A DNA stretch of 64,000 nt, taken from positions 2,340,989-2,404,988 of the forward strand of contig CAVNZM010000011.1 of assembly GCA_963693365.1 (NCBI GenBank), read 5' to 3'. Origin of the DNA: Amoebidium appalachense. Its lineage: Eukaryota; Protista; Ichthyosporea. The translations under genes were made by a program, and so were the position numbers. The notes below the pieces were generated by a model. That model did no database searches, was not told the origin of the DNA, and saw nothing but the letters and a program-made list of their open reading frames with translations. Shown here in pieces: positions 1 through 63,420 of the stretch (its first letter is position 1; each line of letters opens with the position of its first letter).

Positions 1-90
1 TATCACGAACATAACCATGCAAGCATACACACACCACTCAACGAGAAAAATATTAGAGGATCACAGGCATAGGCTTACTGTGGCGACCCC

Positions 91-134
<44 letters not shown>

Positions 135-270
135 AAAAAAAAAAACTTGGATGACATATATATATATATAAGAATACTCCCCCTTCCCCCCCTTGCCACC
201 CACCCATATCAACCGATCACACACACAAACACATATACACACACACACACACACAGACACACACACACAC

Positions 271-1007
271 CTGACTTTTGCCGCTGCGTTACCGGTCCTC
301 TCCACCGATATGTTCCCCCTGGGTAAAACCACCGTCTCCCTCATATATGCCTCGACTGTTGCTTCGTATGTTGCCGCGGTTGCAGTGAGCTTCCGTGTGG
401 CCTTGCACGGTAGCAGCTTGTCAAACCCCACCCCAAACACAACACTGCCCGCACACGTGCCCGTGTGCAGTCGAAACTGGGGTTCCCTGAGTACGCTTTT
501 ACTATCGGTGATGTTGCAGGCGCCAAAACTCACGCCCTCCAGCACCCTGCTAGTGAACCACTGGCCCAGGTTCATATTCACCCATAGGCCCCCCTCATAC
601 AGGTCCACCCCCTCCAACTGCCCGCTGAAATTCGCCCTCAGAGCCTGGGGCGTGGCCAGACTGCACGTGCTACCCTCCAGGCCGGGGTCCCTCACAACCA
701 CATAGTCGACCTGTACCCCCAACGTAGACGCCACAAGCACGTGTGCGTGTGTATTGGAGTCCACCACCAGCTCGCTTAGGGGCTGCCCAGTGGTCCCCCT
801 GGCGCCGACTATTTTCAATGGCACGGTCACGTTGAGTGGGGCGTCAAGGGGGTATGCCCCCGCCTCCAGAAATATGACGTCATTTGCGCTGGCGTTGGCA
901 ACCACCTGCTGCAGGAGTGCTGGGCCGGGGGCAACGTTGTGTACTCTGGCTAGGCATTTACCAGACAGCCATGCAAGAAGCATGCATGGTAGCCAAAGGT
1001 TGTGCAT
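271..1007 (-). CDS. First coding exon of a predicted secreted/cell-surface protein with a right-handed beta-helix (pectin-lyase-like) start; gene continues past the left window edge
   Basis: ATG at 1007 gives a signal-peptide-like N-terminus (MHNLWLPCMLLAWLSGKCLA), then LQQVVANASANDVIFLEAGAY..LNVTVPLKIVG, typical of the cap/first coil of parallel beta-helix proteins, then a Cys-containing beta-rich segment with N-glycosylation sequons. Non-repetitive ORF ends at a GT donor (275 or 270) before a (GT)n tract. Confidence 0.65.
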
Positions 1008-2331
1008 GGCGAACAAAGTCGCCACTGCGAGGGCACACGGAAGAGAGAGTAGATTGCCGTCAAAGTGTACGACGAATAATGGTAGCCGGCAAGTCTGGTG
1101 GTGCCTGGTCTATGGCTATTATTGACAGGTTTTTTGGGGATAAGAGCGTAGATGGCTTGGTATGCGAGCTGTATTGGAGCTTAGCTTCTGGCTCGCAATT
1201 TCATTGCGAGTGAAAAGAAGCCATTTTGAAGTTACGTTATGTAGGTGCAATTTTTGCGTACCATTTATTGATCAACAGCACATTAACTCAACCTAGTGTG
1301 CCTGAAATCATGAGAAAACGAATCAACCTGTTTCCTTGCGTCACCTAGAGCCTTCAGTTGGGAAAGATGAGCTATTTAGTGCTACAGCCTGTAACAAAGG
1401 TGGCGGGCCCCGTTGAACTTCAACTCCTGGCCAGCAGTCAGAGAGCGCCTGCCTTCTTGTGAAAGAAACTAGAGCCCTTAGATTAGTGATAAGATTGTTG
1501 AGCACCCTGCGAGTGGAAACTATAGGCTTGCTGAATACTCTACACAACGACACGTGTGAACTTGTCGGCACAGACGCATACACAACACTAACACGTGTAA
1601 GCGGAAGGCGGTGTGTGTACTGAGTCTGTGACTGGCAGGTGTGTGAAATAACACGGCATTCCAGTATTAGTAAAATCAACCAATCAGCGGGCGGCATCTA
1701 CTAGATGGCGGTGCGTAATAAAGCTAGGGGGATTCTTTCATCAACTAGGGGGCCAAAAGTCTTCGGAGCAAAGCCTTGCAAGGCAAAATGAAAACCTTGA
1801 AAGCTTAGCACGTAGGTTATGCAGGGTGGCAAAAACATACTGCAGCAATACAAAGCCTAGGTCTTGCAAACTGTTCTGCTAAAGTAGCTTGGCAGAGATT
1901 TTTATGCTCACCCGCGAGAATCTCTATGGTTCCTAAACATTTCAACGAAAGGATTGATTTGACAGCAGCTCACCTTGTTCCATTAGAATGACGGCCTACA
2001 GATGAGCAGAGAGCCGCACGAGAATCTAGCGTACATGGTCTTATATTGTTAAAAGGGGATCTCCCGTTGGTCTGCGTGCACACAGGTTGCAGGATGCATA
2101 CAGCCCCTGCTCCATCATTTACGTGCTGAATGTGGGTGACGTTATATTGCTGCACTTACAAAGTAACGAGGGAAAACAAATACATCGCTCTGTGGAGTTG
2201 TTTGCCGAAACGCCGTCACCCTGCCTACACCAATGCAACCGTAGCGAGGTAGACAATACTTATGTGGCTCCACACTTCCCTGGACAGAGTATTCGTGTCT
2301 TGACACCAGTCACTCTTTCACCCATGACAAC

Positions 2332-3183
2332 ATGAACGACACCACCGACACTGAGAAAGTCTACTGCCCGCTGCACTATGCGCGGCCCACGTGCGAAGAG
2401 TCCTGGGCCGAGTCCCTAGGCACCCAATACTTAGCATGGCAGATAATTCTAGGGATTACCGCCGGGTCACTTGCCTTATTTGGCCTGGTTAATCTCTACC
2501 GTCTGGTACGTTACGACATACGTACGTTCCCCTTTGCACTGACGGCTCAGCGTGTGGTTAACCTGTCGGCCACGTTCATCACCATTCTGCTGCTGCTGAG
2601 TGAGCCGGACCTGTGGGGATTTAGAAACATCGTCCCTAAGGACTTTGTCACCTTGACAGAGGGTAAACCCCTCCCCCCCTCCCCCCCTTCCCCCACCCCT
2701 CCCCCACCCCACCCGCCAGATTTCTTTGCGCTCCTTGTCACCAGCCCCGTTCCCAACCCTGCCCCTGCCACTACTGTCCCGTGCACATCTGCCACTGGCA
2801 CCCGACTTAATCTATAGCACTCTCCCTCCCCCCCCCTCCCCCTGCTCCCTCTCCCATCCTCCACCTCATCCTTTCTGTGTCGACGTCTGTGCACATAATT
2901 TTGGATATCACTCCCTTAAGGTGAAAATGGATGCTAATTTCATAATTTGACCATTGACCTTTGTGGTTATCTTCTATCACATTCTGCTGTCATCCACCCC
3001 CTTGCTTTCCCCCCCCCCTTCCCCCCCCCAACCTCCACCTGCACAGGCAACACACACACCCTCTCTCACCTTCTTACCCGCTTTTCAAAGTACATACACG
3101 CTTTCTCTCCGCCTATGAGCATCCATATCTTTCTTTGCCCCCCCCTATCTCTCCTCTCTCTCTCTCTCTCTCCTCTCGCTCTC

Positions 3184-3260
<77 letters not shown>

Positions 3261-3284
3261 TCTCTCCCTCTCTCTCTCGCTCTC

Positions 3285-3327
<43 letters not shown>

Positions 3328-4736
3328 CCCCCCTCTCTCTCCCTCCCCCTCCCCCCTCCCCCCCCTCACTCTCTCTCCCCTCTCCCCCGTTCTCTTCTTC
3401 CCCGCCCCGCCCTCCGCAACCCCCCCCCCCCCCCCCCCCCACCCCCCCCACCACCTGATCCCGTCGCTCGCTACCTCTGCTAATGATCCTTTTCCTGACG
3501 ATATCCTAATTCATCTCCTCTCCCCCCCTTCCCCCCCTCCTCCCCCCTCCTCCCCACCCACCCACCCACCCCCGCCCCTCCATCCCTCCTCTCTCCCCGC
3601 CCCCAACACCACCCCTCCATCCCCCCTCTTCCCCCCAGGTCTCCTAGCGACTGCTGTCTACACAACACTGTATGTTGTGACTCTGGACTGGGTGGGACTG
3701 ATTGCCCGGCTGGGGGGAAATGACACCTGGCTGGGCCGACACATAACGTGGGTCAGACGCACAAACATTGTGCTATTAATAGGATTCTGGGTGGGCCTGT
3801 GGGGGTTGCTCATATTGGAAGCCATTATGGACACCAATAATTGGGTGTGGGGGGTCAAGTTTGCTAAGACAATTCTATTTATGTGCAATGTTGCATGTGT
3901 GCTGGGCCTGGCCATGCTATTAATAGCTACCATCATCAATGTGCTGAGGACCGTGGAGGCACCCGAAGACAGCCACCAGCATGTGCAGGTAGTGGGCCAA
4001 GCACCCTCACTTCATGCACACACACACAAGCACAGCTGTGCACACACACACGCACCGAAAGAGAGAGAGGGAGAGGGAGAGGGAGGGAGAGGGAGACCAC
4101 ACATGCACACACATTTATGCCTCAAGTACTCCCCAATAAGCTACCCCGCTGAACACACACACGGCACACTTTCCCTCCTACACGTTCGTGGATTATCCCC
4201 CCCCCCCCCCCCCTCCCCCCACGGGGGGAGCCACCATGCTTACTGGCACACACTTGTACTCTGGGTGGGAGCACACACCGGATTTATGCAGTCGGTCAAG
4301 AATCACGTAACCAACTCATGACATGCCCATCCCCTGCACCCATCCCCCCCCCCCCCCCCCCCCCCCCCCCCGTGCGCTCAGCCCAACTCTCCACTAGCCC
4401 TCAGACCATACATTCACCATAACTCTTGGGGGTGTGATTGTTGTGTGCATATGTGTTGCCTGCTGCCCCCTCTACTTGCTCCCCCCGCCACCAGTATCCT
4501 CATATCAACATGTGTCCATCTGCCATCATCTCTCATCCCCCCCCCCCACCACCACAACCACCACCACGGTACCGTAAACCCTCACTATTCCCGTACGTGC
4601 CCCCCCCACCCCTCCCCTCCTCCTCCTCCGCTACTTCCTACATGAAAGTTCAACCCGGCCGTCATGTTTCATTACCTACCCCTTTCATCTCTTCCCACAC
4701 GTGCTCTCCCGTGCTCTCGGATTCTGACCCTCCCCT

Positions 4737-4807
<71 letters not shown>

Positions 4808-7800
4808 TCAAGTGGCAGTGGCGAGCAGCCCAAACAGCGCCCGGTGTCAATCCTCCTTCCCCCAACCGTCACAGAAGAGAGAACCAGAAGACTCCAAGAC
4901 CGCATGGGGGCTACAGGGTTAAAGTGGTGGTGGTTCATGTTGGTGTCGAACCCAAAGGGACATGGGGTACAGGGGGGACGTAAACATGGGGTGAGGGCAG
5001 TGAGAAATATGGCTATGCTACAGACGATGGTTAGGCTGGGCACGGTGTTTGCTGTGGGGGGACTGGTGGCGTTTGGTTGGTTGGGATATAATGCGGTGTG
5101 GATCATGATGAAGAGGAGGACCGATAAGGAGCCCGATCAGGTGGGTGAATATGCCGACATGTTTTTTATTTATTCCTTTTTTATTTGTACTTTTCTCCAT
5201 TATTCTTTTTTCTGGCTTTGGCTTTGGCTTGGCTTTGGCGACTTCTTCTTCTTTTTCTTCTTCTCTTTTTTTCTTCTCTTTTCTCTCTCTCTCTCTCTCC
5301 TTTTTTTTTTTTTTTTTTTTTTGGTTGTTGTTGTTGTTGTTGTTGTTGTTGTTGAAGTTTTTTTTGGGGGGGGGGGGGGGGGGGGGGGGGGGGAGGGGAG
5401 GGGGGAGAGTGGAAGGGGGGGGTTGCTCTTCTTGATTGGTTTGCTTTCATATCCCCTTGTTCCATATGGCCTCAATCAAGCTTGCGAGTTGCATCTTTGA
5501 TTGACCCTTCACCTCTCCCTTATGCTGTCGTGTTTCAGATCTTCGATGGCTAATTGCTTATTCGTAGCCATTGGTAGCAGTCTTCCCCCCCCCCCCCCCC
5601 CCCCTCTCCCCCCCCTCTTCCCCTAAATAGCCAACCAACCAACCACCCACCCACCCACCTGCACATTTCTCGATCTATTTTATTCATCAGGACGGTTTTG
5701 TTATTTGACTATCTCTTACACACACCTCATCCTACCCTCACCTGAATATCGGCCCGGTTTGAAAGTCTGCTTTGTCTGCCCACTTGTTTTTTTTTCTGTT
5801 TTATCGAGTAAGTTTTTCTTGTCTTCATGCATCCTCCCCCTCCACCCCCCCCCCCCCCCCCCTCCCCGCTCCGCCCCGCCCCTCCCTGCCCGCTGCCCCT
5901 CCTCCTTCGCCATTTCCCTTCCCCCCTCCCCCCCCCCCCCCCCTCGTACCGTGTTCCGCATTCAAACCCCCCCCCCCCCCCCTCCCCCCACCCCCCTCCC
6001 TCCCCCCAATGCCCCTCACCACCACATCTACTAACAACGTGTGTCTGTGCAGGTGCCCACGACCTGGTACGGCTTTGTAGCGCAGTACGTTATCCCCCAG
6101 CTGGCATACAACATGGTTGTACTGTTTGGCTTCTTCTTCTTCCGCTACAGAGCACTGCATAGGGGCAGTGTCAGGCCTACAGACTTTGTGGTGTTGGATA
6201 GGCTGGGCGAGGGCCAGTTTGGTACGGTATACAGGGGGGTGTTGACGAGGGGTGCTGCAAGGTTACCTGTGGCTATAAAGCAGGTGTGTGGGTGGGTGGC
6301 ATGTGTTGTTGGCTATGAAATGTGACGGTGGAATCTTATTAAACTGACTAGTCAACATGTGCATGCCCATTGTTGCTCAGCGTTCTAATATTAGTCTTGC
6401 ATGGTTTTGCACACCTGGGACCAACCAATCAACATCCATTTCTTTGGAGCTAGCCAACCAGTCACATTCATTACTGTGGAGTTAACCAATCACATCCATT
6501 ACTAGGAATCTGATCATTATAACCAATCGATTGCATCCATTCTGTGGTGCTATCAAATGGCAGCTCAAGGATACGGTGGCCAGTCGTGCCGATGAGGCTG
6601 CCCTGCTCTGGGAGGCAGACATGATGATGGCCGTGTCGAGTGAGCATGTGGGCAGGTGTGTGTGTGTGTGGTGTGTGTGTGTGTGTGTGTGTGTGTGCAC
6701 GTGTGTGTGCCTGAGTGCATGCTTGTGTTTGCGTGATGTGTCTGTGTCTGTTTCTCTCTGTGTATGGGTGTGTGTAGATGTCTGTGCATATGGGCGTGCC
6801 TGCACATTGTTGTGTATGTGTATCTTTTTCCAACAGTTGTGTGCGGGTCTCTGTGTGTGCATGTATGTATGTGTGGTGCTCACTTCCGGGGGGAGTGGGG
6901 GGAAGGGGGGGGAGGGGGGGGGGGGGGGGTGTTAACAAACGGATATGGTGCTCATGCTTTGTCTCCTCCCCCCCGCCCTCACCCCTGAATGGATCGAAAC
7001 TCGGGTACTGTGGATGACTTGGGCGCACCCTGATGATGGGCTCTGCTTTTTATGCATACTCTTTATGTGTGATTTACACTCTGCATCGTGTTCATCGATT
7101 TTAATATGTGCTTCATACTCTATACGGCATTCTAACCCTTCCCCCCCCCCCCCCCCCCCCCCCCCTCCCCCGCTTTACTTCCATGCAACCGGGCATGGTT
7201 GCTCTGTGTCGTGCATCTGTAAGCACATACGCATTTTTCGCTGCACTGCATTAGTTTGCACACACATATTCACCGTTTTGCTCACCTTGCTTGCATAAGC
7301 AACCCTGCTCGTCTTTGATCAAGACGGGTTGACCCTCCCAAGTTCAGTTGATGCTGCTGTCTGAGTTGGAGAGTCGTATATACGCGGGCTAAGGGGTCGA
7401 AACTCAGACGCAATTGATGACTTGGGCCCTCCCTGAGGATGGGCTCTGCTTATGACGCATACTGTGCGCATGGCTATGTTGCATACTTGAATGTTTGCCT
7501 TTGCATGTGTCCTTTGTGTATGCGTACTTCGTACCGTGTTCCACATTCAAACCCCCCCCCCCCCCCCCCTCCTTCCAGGCTTGAGGGACTATCCTATGCT
7601 GATGGTGCCCTGTACATGCTGATCGAGTTTGTGGAGGGGGGTGACCTGAGGGCTCATGTGCGCAGACTGGCCCAGCAGGGCATACCTATGCCACTGGGCC
7701 AAAGGCTATTTATAGCTGCACAAATAGCAAATGGCATGGCTGCAGTGGCAGCGGCTGGGTTGGTGCATAGAGACCTCGCGGCTAGGAACTGCATGGTGCA

Positions 7801-7950
7801 AGTGGTGTGTGCTTCCTCCCCCCCCCCCCCCCCCCCCCCCTCCCCCCCTCCCCCGGTAACCAAAATATACACACACACACATGCATATGTGTGTGCGCGC
7901 GTGCACGTACACACACACACACACAACACACACACACAACACACACACAC

Positions 7951-8022
<72 letters not shown>

Positions 8023-9342
8023 ACCACCACCACCACCACCACCACCACCACCACCACCACCACCTTCCTGCCCTTCTCACTCCGTGTGTAATGTCTTGAA
8101 ACCAGTGAAAACATTATGTAGGGTGAATGAGAGAGTGGATAAACCCATGTGGTGTTGCGTGTTTTGTCTGGGTGCGCATTGGTGGGAATGTGCATTGTAC
8201 CTATCGTTTGAGACCGGTAAGTACTCTCCCCTCTCCCCTCCTCCCCCCGGGTCCTCCTGTCCGCCTGCCAATCTAGCTCCTTTCCCTGCCCCATTTTCAC
8301 CGCTCTCCATATGTTTAACCCCCTTCCCCCCTACCTTCTCCCCCCCCCCCCCCCCCCCCCCCCCCTTCCCCCTCCCCTTTCCTCTCTCCATCCACCCCCT
8401 TTTCCCCACACACACAGACGCCCAGTGGGCCACAAATCAAGATCAGTGACTTTGGGCTGGCCCAGAGGATGGGCCCCAATGGGCAGTACGTCAACCCAAG
8501 AGACAGCGCCCTACTGCCTCTGTGCTGGTCGGCACCAGAGGCACTAAAGGGGGGAGTGTGGAGTGAGTACAGCGATGTCTATGCATTCGGCATCACCTGG
8601 TAAGTGCTATGGTATATTTAGTGCTTTGCATCTATATTTGGGTTGCTCCTGGGTGTGTGGGATGTAGTGCACAAAGATATTTGACAAGGCACCACATGTT
8701 TTGCTTTCGTTACTGCCCAATCATTCCCTAAGCTGATGCCTGTCTGTTCCTTTTCCTCTGTGTGTGTTGGCGAAGTTAGAGCGTGCACTTTATTGTTTTT
8801 GTAGTGATGCTTTACCACTGCATGGAGGGTATGGTGGTTCGATGGTGTAGTGTGTGGGTGGCTGGACACAGTTATCAACACAACTGCTGTCACCGAAATA
8901 CATGGTGCAGCTACGGCAATAGGAAGTAAACCTACACGTGTACACATTCACTGATATTACCCGCCGCCCTCCCTCTCCCCCCTCCCCCGTCCCTCTCTTC
9001 TTTTTTTGCTTTGCCCTCATGCTTGCTCCTCCCATGGCTCCCGAAATTACATGCAGAAATATCCCTGAGAACTCGTAAATCCAAGCAACCTGGATATCAG
9101 TAATATCCGCATAGCTACAATGGTGTTTGCACGCTCACACACACAGATGTACGAGCACGCAAGGTGTGCACAGATCGGCGCGCACCTTTAGCAACCACGG
9201 CACTTTGGACACGTTACTTTTTGTAATTCTAGTTGGCTGGGCATGCAGGTGGGAGCTGGAGCAGAGCACCGGGGAGACACCAATGCGGGGCAAACCTGAC
9301 AGGCAGATGGTCGAGGCCGTGGTGAATGGTGCGTTTGTGGGT

Positions 9343-9393
<51 letters not shown>

Positions 9394-9499
9394 GGGTGGG
9401 TGGGTGTGGGTGGGTGTGGGTGGGCGGGTGGTTGATGGGGGGGTGGTTGGTGGAGGGGGGGGGGGGAGGGGGAAGACCTTGGTGTGTTTTTTTTTTTTT

Positions 9500-9530
<31 letters not shown>

Positions 9531-10813
9531 GGGGGGGAGGGGGGGGGGGGTGTACGTGCGTGCGTTTTTGTGTGGGCGTGGGTGTTGGGGTGTTTGTGTG
9601 CGCGTGTCTGTGCATGTGTGTATGTGTGGGTGTGTGGGTGTGTGGGTGTGTGGGTGTGTGGGTGTATGTGTGCGCGCGTGTGTGTGTATGTGTGTGTGTT
9701 GTGTTGTGTATGCGCAGGCACAGGCGCATGCATGTGTGTTGTGGATGGATGTGGGTGTGGGTGGGTGGGTGGGTGGGTGGGTGGGTGGATGGGTGGATGG
9801 GTGGGTGGGTGTGCATGTGCCCCTGCACATGGCACGTACCGTGCATGTGGCCTGTGCATATGCATGCAGGCCGGGCGTAGGTAACATTTGCATATACATG
9901 ACTGTGTGCATCTATGTATACATGTGGGGTGAGCTGTATGACAGAGTTGACTGGCTGATGTGGCAAACTCGCAGATGGAGAGATTGTGATTGTGGTTGTG
10001 TGGTCTAGGTGCATACATGCTCCAGCGTGTGTGTGCATTAGTGTGTGCACGGTCAGTGTGAGCATGTGTACGTGCATCTGGGTTGTAGGTTGTGACAGTG
10101 GCCGCGGTGCGCTGGTGGATGTGCGTGTGTGGCTCCTCCAAGGGGGGGAGGGGATGGAGTAGTACAGGAGGTGGGATCAGGGGAACGAAGAGTATGAATT
10201 CTGTTTTTTGACATGGTCAGATTCACAACATAGGTCTTTTTCTGACCCATCCCCCCCCCCCCCCCCCCCCTCCCCGCCCCCCTCCCCCTCCCCAAATGCA
10301 GGATTAAGACCTGTGAGGCCCCCCAATACCCCCACGCCCATCTGGCAGGCAATGAGCAAGTGTTGGCATGGGGATGTGAGGCAAAGGCCCAGCTTCAAAG
10401 AGATAGAGCGGGAGATAGCAGCCATGGGTGAAGGAAATGAACTAAATTACAGTAGAGACGTTGTAGGGTTGAAGGTCATACCAAGTATGACTGGCAGCGT
10501 GGATGGGGGTTTATATACGGAAATGGCGGGTGTGGGGGGGTTGTATACGGAAATGGTGGTAGAGCAAGATGATACATATGTGGAATTGTTGAATGCGGCG
10601 AATAATACGCAGGCGCGGATGTCCAGGCCTGTGAGTATGTGGGCTGGGCTGTCAGCAGCATTGCAATTTGGGAGGATGGCTAGGGCAAGTGGTGATACTC
10701 TGAGTATTGGGGGGGCATCGGTAGCTATGAATGTAAGGAGGAGGAGTGAGAGTGGGGCAGGGGCGGGTAATTTAAAAGTCATGGAGAATGATGTTATTGT
10801 GGGTGATGCATGA
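2332..10813 (+). CDS. 7-transmembrane (GPCR-like) receptor fused to a protein tyrosine kinase, ~779 aa, 9 exons
   Basis: Exons 2332-2662, 3639-3988, 4805-5140, 6053-6283, 6564-6655, 7579-7804, 8418-8599, 9249-9328, 10302-10813. All introns GT-AG with matching phases (1,0,0,0,2,0,2,1); total 2340 nt. Seven hydrophobic segments, then GEGQFG, VAIK, alphaC Glu (LLWEADMM), HRDLAARN, KISDFGLA, LPLCWSAPE, SDVYAFG, WEL..GETP, CW...RPSF. TM7 and the kinase G-loop share one exon (6053-6283). Exon 3 acceptor and exon 6 donor are slightly uncertain. Confidence 0.9.
6029..6052 (+). promoter_or_regulatory. Perfect TACTAAC branch point and 3' splice site of intron 3 of the 7TM-kinase gene
   Basis: TACTAAC at 6029-6035; acceptor AG at 6051-6052 precedes the in-frame exon VPTTWYG. 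Confidence 0.75.
6996..7141 (+). repeat. Dispersed ~150-bp intronic repeat, copy A
   Basis: GAAACTCGGGTACTGTGGATGAC..CCTGATGATGGGCTCTG..TTATGCATACT..GCATCGTGTT..CATTCTAACCC aligns by eye with 54678-54843 and 7399-7553. Confidence 0.75.
7399..7553 (+). repeat. Dispersed intronic repeat, copy B (diverged); its 3' end recurs at ~5945-5968
   Basis: GAAACTCAG..GATGACTTGGG..CCCTGAGGATGGGCTCTGCTT..TCGTACCGTGTTCCACATTCAAACCCC; TCGTACCGTGTTCCGCATTCAAACCCC occurs at 5945. Confidence 0.7.
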
Positions 10814-13462: not shown

Positions 13463-15128
13463 CTGTGGATGGGGGCCGGGGGGGGGGGGGGGGGGTTCAA
13501 TACGGCATGCCTTAAGATAGGTATATCTAGAGGCATTTTGAAACAAAGGTCTAATTTTTTTTCCTAAAAGCCTTTTTTTACTTTTTTTTTTTTTTTTTGT
13601 GTGTATTTTCTCGGTATGCGTGTGCATGTGTGTGTCTGACGTCTGTGTGTGTGTTCGGTGGTGGTAGCTGAGGAGGAGGTGCATGTGCAGCGTAGGACGA
13701 TTTGAAAGGAAGGAGCGTTGCTACTTGACGGGAGGCGGGAAGAAACCTGTGTGCATATATATGCGTGTTCGCTCGCGCATCAATATCTCTCGGCTCACAC
13801 TCACGCGTATAGGCGCGTGACAGCTTGTTTTTTGTGGGGTATGTGTGTGTGTGGGGAGGGGAGGGGGAGGGGGGGGGGGGAGGGGGGGGGAGGGGGGGGG
13901 GGGGGGGGGGGGCAACGTACACAAAGACCAACGGCAGCCGTAGCACCCGTGATGCATTGAGCGGTGGATACTGGCAGACCGAGATAGGAGGCAGTCAGCA
14001 CAGTCACCATGGCTCCAAGCTCCATGGAGAACCCACGGGAGGGCGACATGTAGGTGACGTTATTGCCAAGTGCACGCATGATGTGGTAGCCGTAGAGCAT
14101 GAGGCCTGTACGTGTATGTGTGTGTGTGTTAGTGTATGTTAGTTTACTCTCCTTTAAGAATGATGGGTAGGGGGAAGGCCCAGGTTATGCGCTTCCGGAA
14201 GGTGGGGACAAACAGGGAGGGAGGCCATAAGGTAAAGCAAAAAGAAGTACAATGACGCCGCTACAGTCGTGCAGGCATGAATGATTTGCCCGCAAGCGCG
14301 CGCGCGCACACACACACACACACACACGCGCGCGCGCGCCCGCGCACCCGCGCGCGCGGATGCGCGCCCGCGTGCGCGAGAGTACACAAACCTCAAAAGT
14401 GTTGAGAAAGAAAGAGTGGGGTGGGTGCAAGGCGACCCAGTGGTACTCAGCGGTACCAAGTTTAACACAGACATATACACATGTTCACTCGCACACAAGA
14501 AAAGGGGAACAGAAGGGGTGTGTGTGTGTGTGTGTGTGGTGGTGGTGGTGGTGCTGGTTGGGGGGGGGGGGGGGGGGGGGGGGGGAGGGGGGGGGGGGGA
14601 GGGGGGGAGGGGGGGGGGGAGGGGGGGGCGCAAGAGGGCCGAAGGGAGTGCAGGTGTGTTAAGTAGTGGCTGTGGAAGAGTTGCTAGGTATCTTACCGAG
14701 CACAATACCAGCACCGCCATAGGCAAGCATCCACGTAGGCACCACGGATGCCTTGGGGATCACGCCAGAATGGTAAATGGAATAGATGGTGGCTAGGGGG
14801 GCCATGGCATTGCCTACGTCATTGGCACCGTGCACGTGGGAGAACGAGGCCATTGCACTGGTGAGCACCTATGGGTAGGCGTATGTGTCAGATCATTTGT
14901 GTTTTGCTCAAGTCTGCCGTGAGATATGTGTAGTGATAGTATACTATACACAGTAGATTTTTTTGTTTTTATATCAACGCCCTCCCTCCCCTCCCCCTCC
15001 CCATTTATTGATCTTACCCCCCCCCCCCCCCCCCCCCCCTCTCTCTTCCTCCCCCCCCCCCCCCCCCCCCCCCCCCCCAAGCATTTATTATTTGTTACTA
15101 TGTTACCGTCATTAAAAAATTTGGCGGT

Positions 15129-15195
<67 letters not shown>

Positions 15196-15478
15196 AATTG
15201 GGGCAGTGAAAGAAAGAAAACCGAGGAATAGGGTGTCTAGGGGTATTTTTTCAGCGGTTGTGGGGGTTGCATGCGCAGAGGTTGCCCATGACGGGGATAC
15301 TGATGCAAGGCATATTCAGAGAGCCGGGGTGGGGGGGGGGGAGGGAGGGGGGGGAGGGGGGCACAATAACTCTCTTTCACTGAGGGAAAATTCTGCGTAC
15401 GCACCTGAGTCCACTGGAAGACACGCTCAGTCCTGGGCTCATACTTGGATGCGCGGCCATGCACAGCTGCCATCTTGT
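12963..15478 (-). pseudogene. PiT/PHO4 (SLC20/Pho89-like) phosphate transporter, C-terminal half only, frameshifted
   Basis: Phase-consistent exons 15478-15405 (KMAAVHGRASKYEPRTERVFQWTQ), 14868-14697 (SFSHVHGANDVGNAMAPL), 14105-13921 (MSPSRGFSMELG..LPVSTAQCITGA) and 13108-12963. The last reads NGGVKAVN-TGA-AG-MVAICLFGWILTLP, one base short of AVNWKM. No N-terminal GANDVAN repeat found upstream before the myosin tail. Confidence 0.8.
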
Positions 15479-17536
15479 CTGCATTGTATAATAAAACGGG
15501 ACAGATCTGGGTGCCCCAACGTCACGTGTGCCCGCCCACACCTCCTATTTGCTGCAAACGAGCGTGTTCACTGAGTCAGTGGAGTGGGGCCGGGTATGTG
15601 CTCTTTGTATATCGACAGGGACTCATGGGTACACATATGTGGTGCTGTAGGTGGTGCAGGCACCACCTGGGGCAACACATACTTCCACTAACCAACGAGG
15701 CACAAGAGTGTAAATATTGTGTATATGTGGAGATAGGTGGTCTTTTGGTTATCGGATATTGCCAAAATTTCCTGATTAGGTTTCTACTACATTGGAAAGC
15801 ACATATTTTTTTGTGTGTTAAATTTTCAAAGTTTAGCCCGGTTGCGACACAGTGTGATCACCAGGCTGAGCTCTGAGTGGATTGCCGGGAGGCGAGCAGG
15901 ATATATTTTTTCCGGGTAGGACCCCCACCCCACCACACACACACAAACAGACATCTTCCCCCCCTGCAGCTGAATGTGGGAAGGGGCTGGACACAAGTGC
16001 ACCATCCGATCACGAGCAGGTGGGTCCCCCTAAGCCAAAGTGTCCTGATGCTTATAAACCCCCCAAGGCCTCCCACACAAGGACCCCCCAAAGGTCTCCG
16101 GCTCAAAAATTTAGCATGTCTTTGTGCCCTCTCCAGACACCAGAACACCGAGCTCAGGTCAATAGCACCCCCTCGGCACCGCGAATCCGTGGCAGTCGGA
16201 GATATCCCCCACTTGATTAAGGCGGAAAGAAAAAGTTTACCTACTACATAATGACCATCTCGTCACCGAAAAGGGTATATCCTATATCCAGCAGCAGCAG
16301 CATGCATTTGAGCAAATACATCTCTTCTCAAAATATTACTTCAAATACATGTTACAGCTTTTTTATGGCTTCATACTCAATTAGATAAACAATATATTAT
16401 TTGACGTCGGTCGGTCACGGGCTTGAACGCAAGTAACCTGCAGCTGTTGCCCTTTTCATTTTATATATTCGTTTGATATATATCTGCAGCTAGCCCCCAT
16501 GTAAACTAGCTAGCTACCTACATCTCTTCGAAATGTGTGATTGCGAGAATTGACCTCTTCAGGCCCGCTCTAATTGATTTGTCTGCCATTGGGTCTCCCT
16601 CTCTGTCCCTCTCTCTTCCCCTCTCCCTTTCACATCTCTCTCTGTCTCTCTCTCTCTCTTTCCGGAAACTCCCCCCCCCCCCCCCCCAAAAAAAAAAAAA
16701 AAAAATTCAATTGCAAACTCTGCCCCCCCCCCCCCCCCCCCCCCCTTCCCCGTCCCTCTTGCACACGTGCCACACGCATGCCATTGGGTCGCAACCAACA
16801 CACTGAAGCCACTCGATTACATATACAGTATTCAAGGCTTAAAAACCATTACGAAAGTTCAGTCTAAAAGACAGCATTGCCTACACCACGTGCATCAATC
16901 ATGTTCTAATCCAGCACAATGTCAATTCAGCTTGCTTGCGACTACTTTACTATACATCCAGGGCAGCTGGTAAAGCTTATGTTGTCAAAAGAAGTGTCTG
17001 TACATATTTCCATAGCTACTGCGGGAAAACTCAACCGTTCAACTAACATACATTCAGAAAACGGATTCACAAAACTGACTGTAAGAAACTCATAGGAAAG
17101 GCCCCACTCAGCTCCAGCAAAACATACTTCGATACAATTGGGCATACGGATCGCTTCAATTACAACCAGCATACATACGACCGAGCCATTCGTTCCTGTC
17201 TACTTGACCTTATAATGTATTACAGTACTTTGTGCTACACAAACAGTCCTTCATGTTTCTACATAGCCATACATCACCATTAAAGGAAGCTACCAGATAT
17301 ATATATCTGTGTGGGCATATTGCACCGTGTGTTTATCTACTTATTTGTCCTTGTTATTTGTAGCCCTGACTGTGCTTCCTCAGGAGCCCGGTGCGGAAGA
17401 TTTACCCTAACTAGCAAGTGGCTAAGGCTGCTGTGTGGGTGTATTTGTGTGCGGGTATATTGTATCCCTGCCCAATTTGATGTGCACAGCCGCGGTGGGT
17501 AAGGGGAAAAGCAGACGGGAAGGGGGGAGATGCGAA

Positions 17537-46312: not shown

Positions 46313-47152
46313 ACACCTCCCTTCAAACTCTTCTTGTCCCGTCAGAACAACAACTGTCCCACTGCCATGTGGCCAAAATCTCTTTCCTCCTCCCCCTCCC
46401 CCCCCCCCCCAACACACACACACACACACACACGCACACTCACACGCACACACACCGGGCACGTCACAACTAACAGATGTCGCAACCGTGCTTTGGTCGG
46501 ATAGGGTTTACGAATATAAGTGCCAAGTTTTCTTTAGTAGCTGACAGGTCCTCAAATTGCTTATTCCTTGACTACCTTACTGCATGGACACAGGTTATCC
46601 ACTCGCGAGTTATCACTGCCAACTTCCTGCCCACGTGTGTCCTTTCGTGCCAGGTATGCATGATGTGCACTTTGCACAAAACAAAGTGCGAATGCTCGAG
46701 TGTGTTGGTGTGCAAGGTTTGTTTCAGCATGTGTGTGTGTACCTGCACTGGTACGTATGTGCTTGTGTATGCGTTCCTATCGGTGTGTAGGTGCTCGTAA
46801 GCGTACCCCCACCCACCTCCATTTCTTCGTCAAAGTTGTCGTCCATTTCATAGTCGTCCATGTCTCCCCCGTCTCCCCCTCCATATCTGCAACCCCTACT
46901 TTAGTTTTCGACCCAACCACCTGTGTACCATTCTTGTATCTCTGTTTTATAGTGCCAACCTTGTATCTCTTTTTATAGTGCAGTCTGCGCATAACACAGA
47001 CAGCCTGTTCCACCACCATAGACACAGGTAGCTTGATCATTCGTCGAGTACAGGGGGGACTTCAAATCTTGGCACTTATTCGTTTGGAAAAAATCTGAAG
47101 AGCCACATAGAAATTGTGATGCTGCTGCTTACCCTCCCTCGTCGTCCGACAT
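43456..47152 (-). CDS. RPB6: DNA-directed RNA polymerases I, II and III subunit RPABC2 (RPB6), 129 aa, 6 exons
   Basis: Exons 47152-47133, 46886-46817, 45461-45413, 44882-44792, 44413-44340, 43541-43456, all GT-AG and in phase (390 nt). Product: [106 protein letters not shown], the diagnostic RPB6/POLR2F sequence. Confidence 0.97.
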
Positions 47153-53059: not shown

Positions 53060-53373
53060 AAAAGAAAAAGAAATGAAAAGAAAAGACACCCGTGTTCCAC
53101 GCAACACACCATGCATGATGTCTTCTGACCCTAACCCGTACCTGCAGGTGCCGGTGGCTCCCAGCGTCTGACCCGTGCCGTGGGCAAGTCTCTGGCCATG
53201 GAGATGTGCCTGACTGGTGACATGATCGATGCCAACACCGCCCTTGCTGCCGGTAAGCTACGGTCTGGTGTTATTGTGCAGAATCTCGGATCCTTGTTGC
53301 ATGATGAAATGCAGTGTTGCTGTTGAATGAGGCTTGGTTAAGCCAATGTTTGAATGAAATTGCTGTTCCATTA

Positions 53374-58967: not shown

Positions 58968-63420
<4,453 letters not shown>

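Follow-up and report, generated by a model that had tools for sequence, protein, structure and literature searches.

Fusions between seven-transmembrane (7TM) domains and kinases arose repeatedly, as was concluded in a 2025 survey (PMC12716839; statements drawn from this paper, and from PMC5784254, PMC4771162, PMC3971589 and PMC3942036 below, refer to the accessible parts of these texts). This survey named G protein-coupled receptor tyrosine kinases (GPCR-TKs), 11 of them in choanoflagellates together with members in sponges; their 7TM domains are heterogeneous and none of these proteins has been functionally characterized. In the accessible part, GPCR-TKs are reported to be absent from other holozoans, for which six ichthyosporeans were surveyed, Amoebidium not being one of them. 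GPCR-TKL/K of acanthoecids and GPCR-TKL of oomycetes and amoebozoans also carry a 7TM domain and a kinase in one chain; their kinases are tyrosine kinase-like (TKL) or other non-tyrosine enzymes, and a DEP domain is present in many of the oomycete proteins (PMC5784254). Ichthyosporean receptor tyrosine kinases (RTKs) all fall into one clade and their receptor parts have often been shuffled (Suga et al., 2014; PMC4342544). One family described there, the Amoebidium-specific IchRTK19 with four listed entries, combines a group A tyrosine kinase (TK) with multiple transmembrane (TM) segments; six putative segments were predicted manually and no family was given for the membrane part. Here, we analysed a 64-kb stretch of DNA from Amoebidium appalachense (contig CAVNZM010000011.1, positions 2,340,989 to 2,404,988; the whole stretch is called the window) and describe a gene on its plus strand (window positions 2332-10813) that joins seven predicted helices to a TK.

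We found that the exons of this gene are joined in spliced RNA, that its kinase is a TK by sequence and that its catalytic motifs are complete. The gene is real and its support is good; proteins of its kind are unusual but have been catalogued before, and it does not represent a new protein class. Both defining features of GPCR-TKs were observed, namely a 7TM domain (by two simple scales and exon-wise models) and a C-terminal TK in the same chain, and the protein is a member of this class by its architecture only. The order of the parts is the same as in the choanoflagellate and sponge GPCR-TKs, but the lineage differs from those reported. Its most probable identity is that of an IchRTK19 member, which we regard as quite likely on the basis of the published description of this family. 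Taken as a whole, the reading that we favour and consider moderately probable is an expressed, spliced 7TM-TK gene, the product of which is likely an RTK with a helix-bundle sensor and probably belongs to IchRTK19.

The earlier note on this DNA had presented the 7TM-TK fusion as novel. This claim falls, as the note itself had foreseen for a family already described, because GPCR-TKs (PMC12716839) and, since 2014, the multi-pass ichthyosporean RTKs of the IchRTK19 family (PMC4342544) are already in print. What is new here is a count of seven helices for a member of what is probably a family recorded with six, a weak lead to the TOM1/GPR137 families and a testable signalling model. A transcript-supported and catalytically complete 7TM-TK also extends the range of such proteins beyond the lineages allowed by the accessible part of the 2025 survey (PMC12716839). 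In the literature searched, which lacks most subscription journals, IchRTK19 was not found beyond PMC4342544 and GPCR-TK not beyond PMC12716839; no further multi-pass RTK report was found by title or abstract start, and no mention of a GPCR-kinase was seen in the accessible part of PMC8662651. The IchRTK19 and GPCR-TK literatures, between which we found no earlier connection, are linked by the present gene. With this compact protein it could be examined whether a TK that has no ectodomain can be switched by a bundle of helices, which bears on the swapping of receptor input modules before the single-pass RTK design became fixed in animals.

Gene structure and transcripts

The gene model was obtained by three-frame reading, exon assembly and length arithmetic. 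It comprises nine phase-compatible exons (2332-10813, plus strand, as are all exon positions given below), which are separated by eight introns of 280-976 nt each. All introns follow the GT-AG rule (8/8), and the product has 779 amino acids (aa) and one stop codon. The size of about 779 aa and the nine compatible exons proposed earlier were thereby confirmed; the exon 6 donor was set at 7804 by a spliced contig, which yields the 779 aa.

Of three transcript runs considered, which all derive from one sample of one study, two (X1 and X2) provided contigs that align with the gene, and the third (X3) provided none. Since these contigs skip GT-AG introns exactly, they come from spliced RNA. One contig of 1728 nt (X1 record 1) runs without interruption through exons 1-2-3-4 and carries all seven helices together with the G-loop and the VAIK motif of the kinase. 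The proposal that exons 1-3 are joined to exon 4 in a single polypeptide holds, and two merged gene models are ruled out by the spliced contigs that join helices to kinase. Another contig (X2 record 8) starts inside TM7 (6112) and proceeds via exon 5 into exon 6. Exons 6 and 7 are joined in X1 record 3, and the joint to exon 8 (8598-9248) is present in both runs. For introns 1, 3, 4 and 7 (4/8), GT..AG joints are listed in the contigs. Introns 2, 5 and 6 (3/8) follow from the coordinates of the contig pieces, which leave 7, 93 and 0 letters between them and match the model. The exon 8-9 junction (intron 8) lies beyond the contig-aligned stretch and is consistent in length only. The gene is covered by overlapping contigs up to exon 8, none of which spans it completely.

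From the preceding stop codon to position 2332, a sequence scan revealed no ATG in frame, and there is no upstream start that would add a signal peptide. When the window was searched for paralogs with tblastn, only the gene itself was matched. For exon 3 (4805-5140), the acceptor at 4805 follows a run of A and is backed by two contigs with a gap of 7 letters; in-frame alternatives at 4829 or 4838 were rejected because the contigs align from 4812.

Intron 4 (6284-6563, plus strand) is fully covered by one unspliced contig (X1 record 2, 6254-6589). The depth figure of this contig is 38, compared with 96 for the spliced joint, contig depth being no measure of level, and among the matches listed there was no comparable unspliced piece over another intron. 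Read-through would lead to a stop after 14 codons, so that the 7TM part would lack a functional kinase. The contig may represent pre-mRNA or DNA.

Several other features of the locus were observed. The exon 3 acceptor is preceded not by a pyrimidine tract but by a long C-run and an A-run (4737-4804); comparable runs of C followed by A are present elsewhere in the window and may partly be assembly artefacts. An out-of-frame ATG 8 nt upstream of the start opens a three-codon open reading frame (ORF; 2324-2335, plus strand), the stop codon of which overlaps the start codon. Nine further ATGs are located in the region 1850-2323, and the leader is covered by contigs from at least position 2000. It is possible that these upstream ATGs are involved in translational control of the gene. 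Within intron 5 (about 7000-7510), very high contig depth and several letter differences indicate a multi-copy repeat element.

Kinase domain and tail

The kinase extends from exon 4 (6053-6283, with contig joints on both sides) to exon 9 (10302-10813). Exon 4 encodes TM7, a 14-aa linker, the G-loop and the VAIK lysine (Lys415). Exon 5 (6564-6655), which is placed by a joint (6279-6560) in both runs and by length arithmetic, contributes the alphaC helix with Glu433. Exon 6 (7579-7804) involves the hinge, alphaE and the catalytic loop HRDLAARN (residues 510-517) with Asp512, Arg516 and Asn517. Exon 7 (8418-8599) contains the DFG motif, the activation loop with Tyr546, the P+1 loop (Pro556, Cys558, Trp559), the APE motif and Asp575. 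Exon 8 (9249-9328), the joint of which to exon 7 is the one seen in both runs, covers the end of alphaF to alphaG, and the kinase ends in exon 9 at position 10417. The catalytic set is complete (G-loop, Lys415, Glu433, HRD, Asp512, Asn517, DFG, APE, Asp575). In an exon-wise Pfam scan, the PK_Tyr_Ser-Thr family was matched by four of the nine exons (exon 4, E 0.0018; exon 6, 3.5e-14; exon 7, 1.2e-13; exon 9, 3.1e-05), with no match on exons 5 or 8.

The HRDLAARN or HRDLRAAN form of the catalytic loop is the criterion for group A TKs (PMC4342544). The AAR motif is stated to occur in tyrosine kinases alone and not in TKLs (PMC4771162). When we compared the exons with the PDB, tyrosine kinases accounted for 55 of the 60 matches listed for exon 6, 59/60 for exon 4 and 60/60 for both exon 7 and exon 9. 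The best match of exon 6 was the insulin receptor-related kinase (E 6.6e-11). For exon 4, EGFR made up 59 of the 60 matches listed and the remaining one, which is not a tyrosine kinase, was Stt7; the matches listed for exon 9 were FAK, MET, EGFR and VEGFR2. The sequence of the kinase places it in the tyrosine group. A TKL kinase is ruled out by the AAR catalytic loop together with tyrosine kinases as nearest PDB matches. From the GPCR-TKL proteins the present one differs by this AAR loop and by the lack of a DEP match in the Pfam scan. Compared with single-pass animal RTKs (INSR/IRR, ROS1, EGFR, MET), the kinase sequence, the activation-loop tyrosine and the putative docking tyrosines of the tail are alike; in contrast, our protein has no signal peptide, no ectodomain and seven helices instead of one.

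In the P+1 loop, Pro556 and Trp559 are kept and Arg516 of the catalytic loop is intact, while Cys558 takes the place of a basic Lys/Arg. Its counterpart in EphA3 is Arg789, a named substrate-binding residue (PMC4771162). This Arg-to-Cys change had been absent from the earlier note, and the same is true for the tyrosine motifs of the 131-aa tail, which follows the kinase in exon 9 and ends with the stop codon. The tail carries Tyr659, two YTEM motifs (Tyr681, Tyr691) and one YVEL motif (Tyr702). In view of the sequence preferences of SH2 domains, the two YTEM motifs (YxxM) and YVEL (YxxL) look like putative SH2 docking sites. A tandem duplication with a 30-nt unit (10505-10559, plus strand) has doubled YTEM; its two 25-nt copies are 88% identical at a spacing of 30. 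The duplication was missed by Tandem Repeats Finder and picked up by a separate repeat search.

Membrane part and signalling model

Seven hydropathy peaks (Kyte-Doolittle) were detected in residues 1-375. In a shuffle test, seven peaks occurred in 4 of 1000 shuffled sequences (mean 3.4), the threshold having been chosen after the peaks were seen. On an approximate insertion scale, all seven segments reached at most about +0.8 kcal/mol, compared with +2.3 for the best kinase helix. Both scales agree with the seven helices proposed in the earlier note. Exon 1 (2332-2662), the joint of which to exon 2 is seen in a contig, encodes a short acidic N-terminus with a sequon (N2) and Cys12/Cys21, TM1 (2434-2499), basic loop 1, TM2 (2545-2598) and a short helix after TM2. 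Exon 2 (3639-3988; X1 record 1) contains TM3 (3641-3706), TM4 (3767-3829) and TM5 (3869-3946). Exon 3 carries most of a basic loop between TM5 and TM6 (89 aa, 13 K/R, 7 D/E) as well as TM6 (5030-5107), and TM7 (6074-6142) is located in exon 4. The kinase begins 14 residues past TM7.

For an N-out orientation, 17 K/R flank the helix ends on the inside and 10 on the outside. The N-terminus is therefore predicted to be outside or luminal, with the kinase, the 89-aa loop and the tail in the cytosol (N-out/C-in). This topology, HRDLAARN and the nearest PDB matches agree with the cytosolic tyrosine-group kinase proposed earlier. Given an acidic N-terminus and a basic loop 1, TM2 must cross the membrane if the kinase is cytosolic, and this argues for seven helices rather than six. 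Single-sequence structure models covered exons 1 and 2, folded singly and not as a whole bundle. For exon 1 (predicted local distance difference test, pLDDT, 64; low predicted template modelling score, pTM), two long helices and one short helix were modelled (18-60, 68-89, 93-98), and for exon 2 (pLDDT 68, pTM 0.41) three long ones. A Foldseek search with the exon 2 model gave no match at E up to 0.001, and a VIA search gave generic helical matches only, the best of which (Z 8.9) were unrelated helical hairpins.

Rhodopsin-class GPCRs are characterized by DRY, CWxP and NPxxY motifs and by a disulfide between TM3 and the second extracellular loop. A motif scan of the protein found no [DE]R[YFW], [ND]PxxY or CWxP motif, and the rhodopsin-feature check located cysteines only at residues 12, 21, 193 and 197, none of them in the TM4-TM5 loop. 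Membership of the rhodopsin class is ruled out by the lack of these features, as the earlier note had anticipated for the motifs. Exon-by-exon Pfam scans of exons 1-3 at E up to 1 returned no family, PF06454 included, and NCBIfam likewise gave none. Exon 1 had no match among 1.84 billion representatives at E up to 0.001, none of the candidates was retained when exon 2 was searched against longer proteins (0/413), and by sequence the PDB gave no match to exon 1 and two chance-level rows for exon 2 (CCR7, E 0.71). The language-model features of exon 1 were nearest to the GPR175/Tmemb_40, TOM1, GPR137_N and PRRT3 clusters (0.90, 0.89, 0.85, 0.83 across these) and those of exon 2 to the GPR137_N (10% of members) and THH1/TOM1 (24%) clusters (0.92, 0.92), with recognition values of 1780 and 1968 that are both under the 2300 mark of the tool. 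The resemblance to TOM1/GPR137/PRRT3 proteins noticed earlier reappeared here, and two separate exons provide a weak lead to a TOM1/GPR137-like family. THH1/TOM1/TOM3, GPR137, GPR175/Tmemb_40 and PRRT3 are the nearest named clusters, yet none of them gave a hidden Markov model match to the query.

GPR137 is lysosomal, its ligand is unknown and it has no extra domain (PMC12716839), whereas the present protein carries a kinase. GPRch2 has a large third intracellular loop (ICL3) and no extra domain (PMC12716839); our protein has the 89-aa loop but a kinase is attached. RSF proteins possess an NxLQxxMNxL helix between TM6 and TM7 and no extra domain (PMC12716839). RSF membership is ruled out for our protein, the TM6-TM7 loop of which lacks NxLQxxMNxL by inspection and which has a kinase.

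Several observations weigh against the favoured reading. TM3, TM6 and TM7 are marginal (+0.5, +0.2 and +0.8 kcal/mol on the approximate scale), and three basic residues after TM6 fall on the predicted outer side. IchRTK19 was described with six TM segments and not with the seven predicted here, a comparison that uses the published description only; with three marginal helices, it is plausible that six were counted by hand. LIM kinases, which are TKLs, made up 5 of the 60 PDB matches listed for exon 6, and a word-indexed protein search with this exon returned 14 Ser/Thr-kinase-like proteins only, from 982 candidates; these are read as crowding and are not used as evidence. Of the three residues named for substrate binding, one is changed to Cys558. 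Kinase activity and ligand response of the protein are predictions.

In the signalling model that we propose, a small molecule, a lipid or the membrane state, rather than a protein ligand, would be sensed inside the bundle. With an N-terminus of 34 aa and loops of 13-21 aa, the bundle is predicted to expose little outside the membrane, and the input is therefore not likely to be a protein ligand. A shape change or clustering of the bundle would act via the 14-residue linker and bring the kinases together, which would trans-phosphorylate Tyr546 and then the tail tyrosines Tyr681, Tyr691 and Tyr702. The phosphorylated tail may recruit SH2 proteins; 22-56 SH2 domains have been counted per ichthyosporean (PMC4342544). 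G proteins would not be required. Domain shuffling within ichthyosporeans is the likely origin of the fusion, which would then be independent of the choanoflagellate and sponge GPCR-TKs. A more far-reaching version of this model, which we consider rather doubtful, takes the membrane part as a TOM1/GPR137-type 7TM domain of a family linked to lysosomes and vacuoles and not to G proteins. Fused to an ichthyosporean RTK kinase, it would act as an endomembrane nutrient or lipid sensor writing phosphotyrosine and would represent an independent GPCR-TK origin in the earliest-branching holozoan lineage, with the kinase-less intron 4 form as a decoy.

Three other explanations have to be weighed. A genuine GPCR with two outputs, as read in the earlier note, would signal through its kinase and, via the TM5-TM6 loop, also through G proteins or arrestins. 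Such a receptor would fit the seven helices, the N-out orientation and the long basic loop at the ICL3 position, and ichthyosporeans have an expanded set of G-alpha and RGS proteins (PMC3971589). We consider such a dual output unlikely. The DRY-, NPxxY- and CWxP-type motifs and a TM4-TM5 loop cysteine are lacking, exons 1-3 match no Pfam family at E up to 1, and the kinase sits 14 residues past TM7, where a G protein would probably need room. The sole family lead is TOM1/GPR137-like, and GPR137 itself is a lysosomal protein of unknown ligand (PMC12716839). Nothing beyond the helix count supports G-protein coupling, and the same applies to the 'GPCR-type sensing' suggested earlier.

It is also conceivable that a donor RTK with its own membrane anchor was added to a six-helix module at intron 3, which is in phase 0, so that 'TM7' would be the ancestral RTK helix and no GPCR-like bundle would be needed. 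The frequent shuffling of receptor parts in ichthyosporean RTKs (PMC4342544) is compatible with this scenario. Moreover, exon 4, which follows the phase-0 intron, holds TM7 and the kinase N-lobe together with a stop-transfer stretch of basic residues, and the GPCR TM7 motif is lacking. However, 14 residues are short for an RTK juxtamembrane region, and both TM exons compared (1 and 2) point to 7TM families; we judge this origin to be quite improbable. Finally, the protein might be a membrane-anchored scaffold with a degenerate kinase, or one of altered specificity, the tail of which is phosphorylated by Src-family kinases. Cys558 instead of the conserved P+1 Lys/Arg and the possible kinase-less intron 4 form would agree with a scaffold, but the catalytic residues, Arg516, Pro556 and Trp559 are all intact and the activation-loop tyrosine is present, which makes this explanation very improbable.

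Neighbouring genes

Downstream of the receptor gene, the minus strand of the window carries a myosin gene (about 19700-41250), which includes an N-terminal SH3-like piece. Among 82 references of at least 600 aa, CFRG6244T1 was the best match with 794 summed bits; we take the CFRG prefix to stand for Creolimax. Lower scores were obtained with a chytrid protein (734, apparently a doubled match) and a beetle-labelled protein (546); myosin V of fungi reached at most 525 bits and myosin XIX of animals at most 449. In a quick tree of 21 rows, the window myosin grouped with CFRG6244T1, the beetle-labelled protein and an unnamed fragment (Shimodaira-Hasegawa-like approximate likelihood ratio test, SH-aLRT, 99), and this group adjoins myosin XIX (80). 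On this basis an ichthyosporean host is likely, and the receptor is probably an IchRTK19 member. Two aspects of this comparison belong with the adverse points gathered above: the tree concerns one neighbour gene and is without choanoflagellate or filasterean rows, and BLAST ranking by single high-scoring segment pairs puts the beetle-labelled protein, not CFRG6244T1, first. The beetle-labelled myosin (P0062) comes from a 24-kb contig and may be an ichthyosporean contaminant or a long-branch artefact. Myosin XIX has been reported in eumetazoans and ichthyosporeans only, according to the accessible part of PMC3942036.

Pieces of other genes were also recognized, namely a PHO4 phosphate transporter (13900-15500, minus strand), an EXS-family protein (46664-46975, plus strand, weak), an enoyl-CoA hydratase (53135-53323, plus strand) and a PXA-domain protein (62508-62993, plus strand). 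On the other side of the receptor gene, a divergent ORF (78-1010, minus strand) has a signal-peptide-like start, a weak NosD-family match (E 0.004) and no Pfam match; it possibly encodes an adhesin-like protein or a receptor ectodomain and continues beyond the edge of the window.

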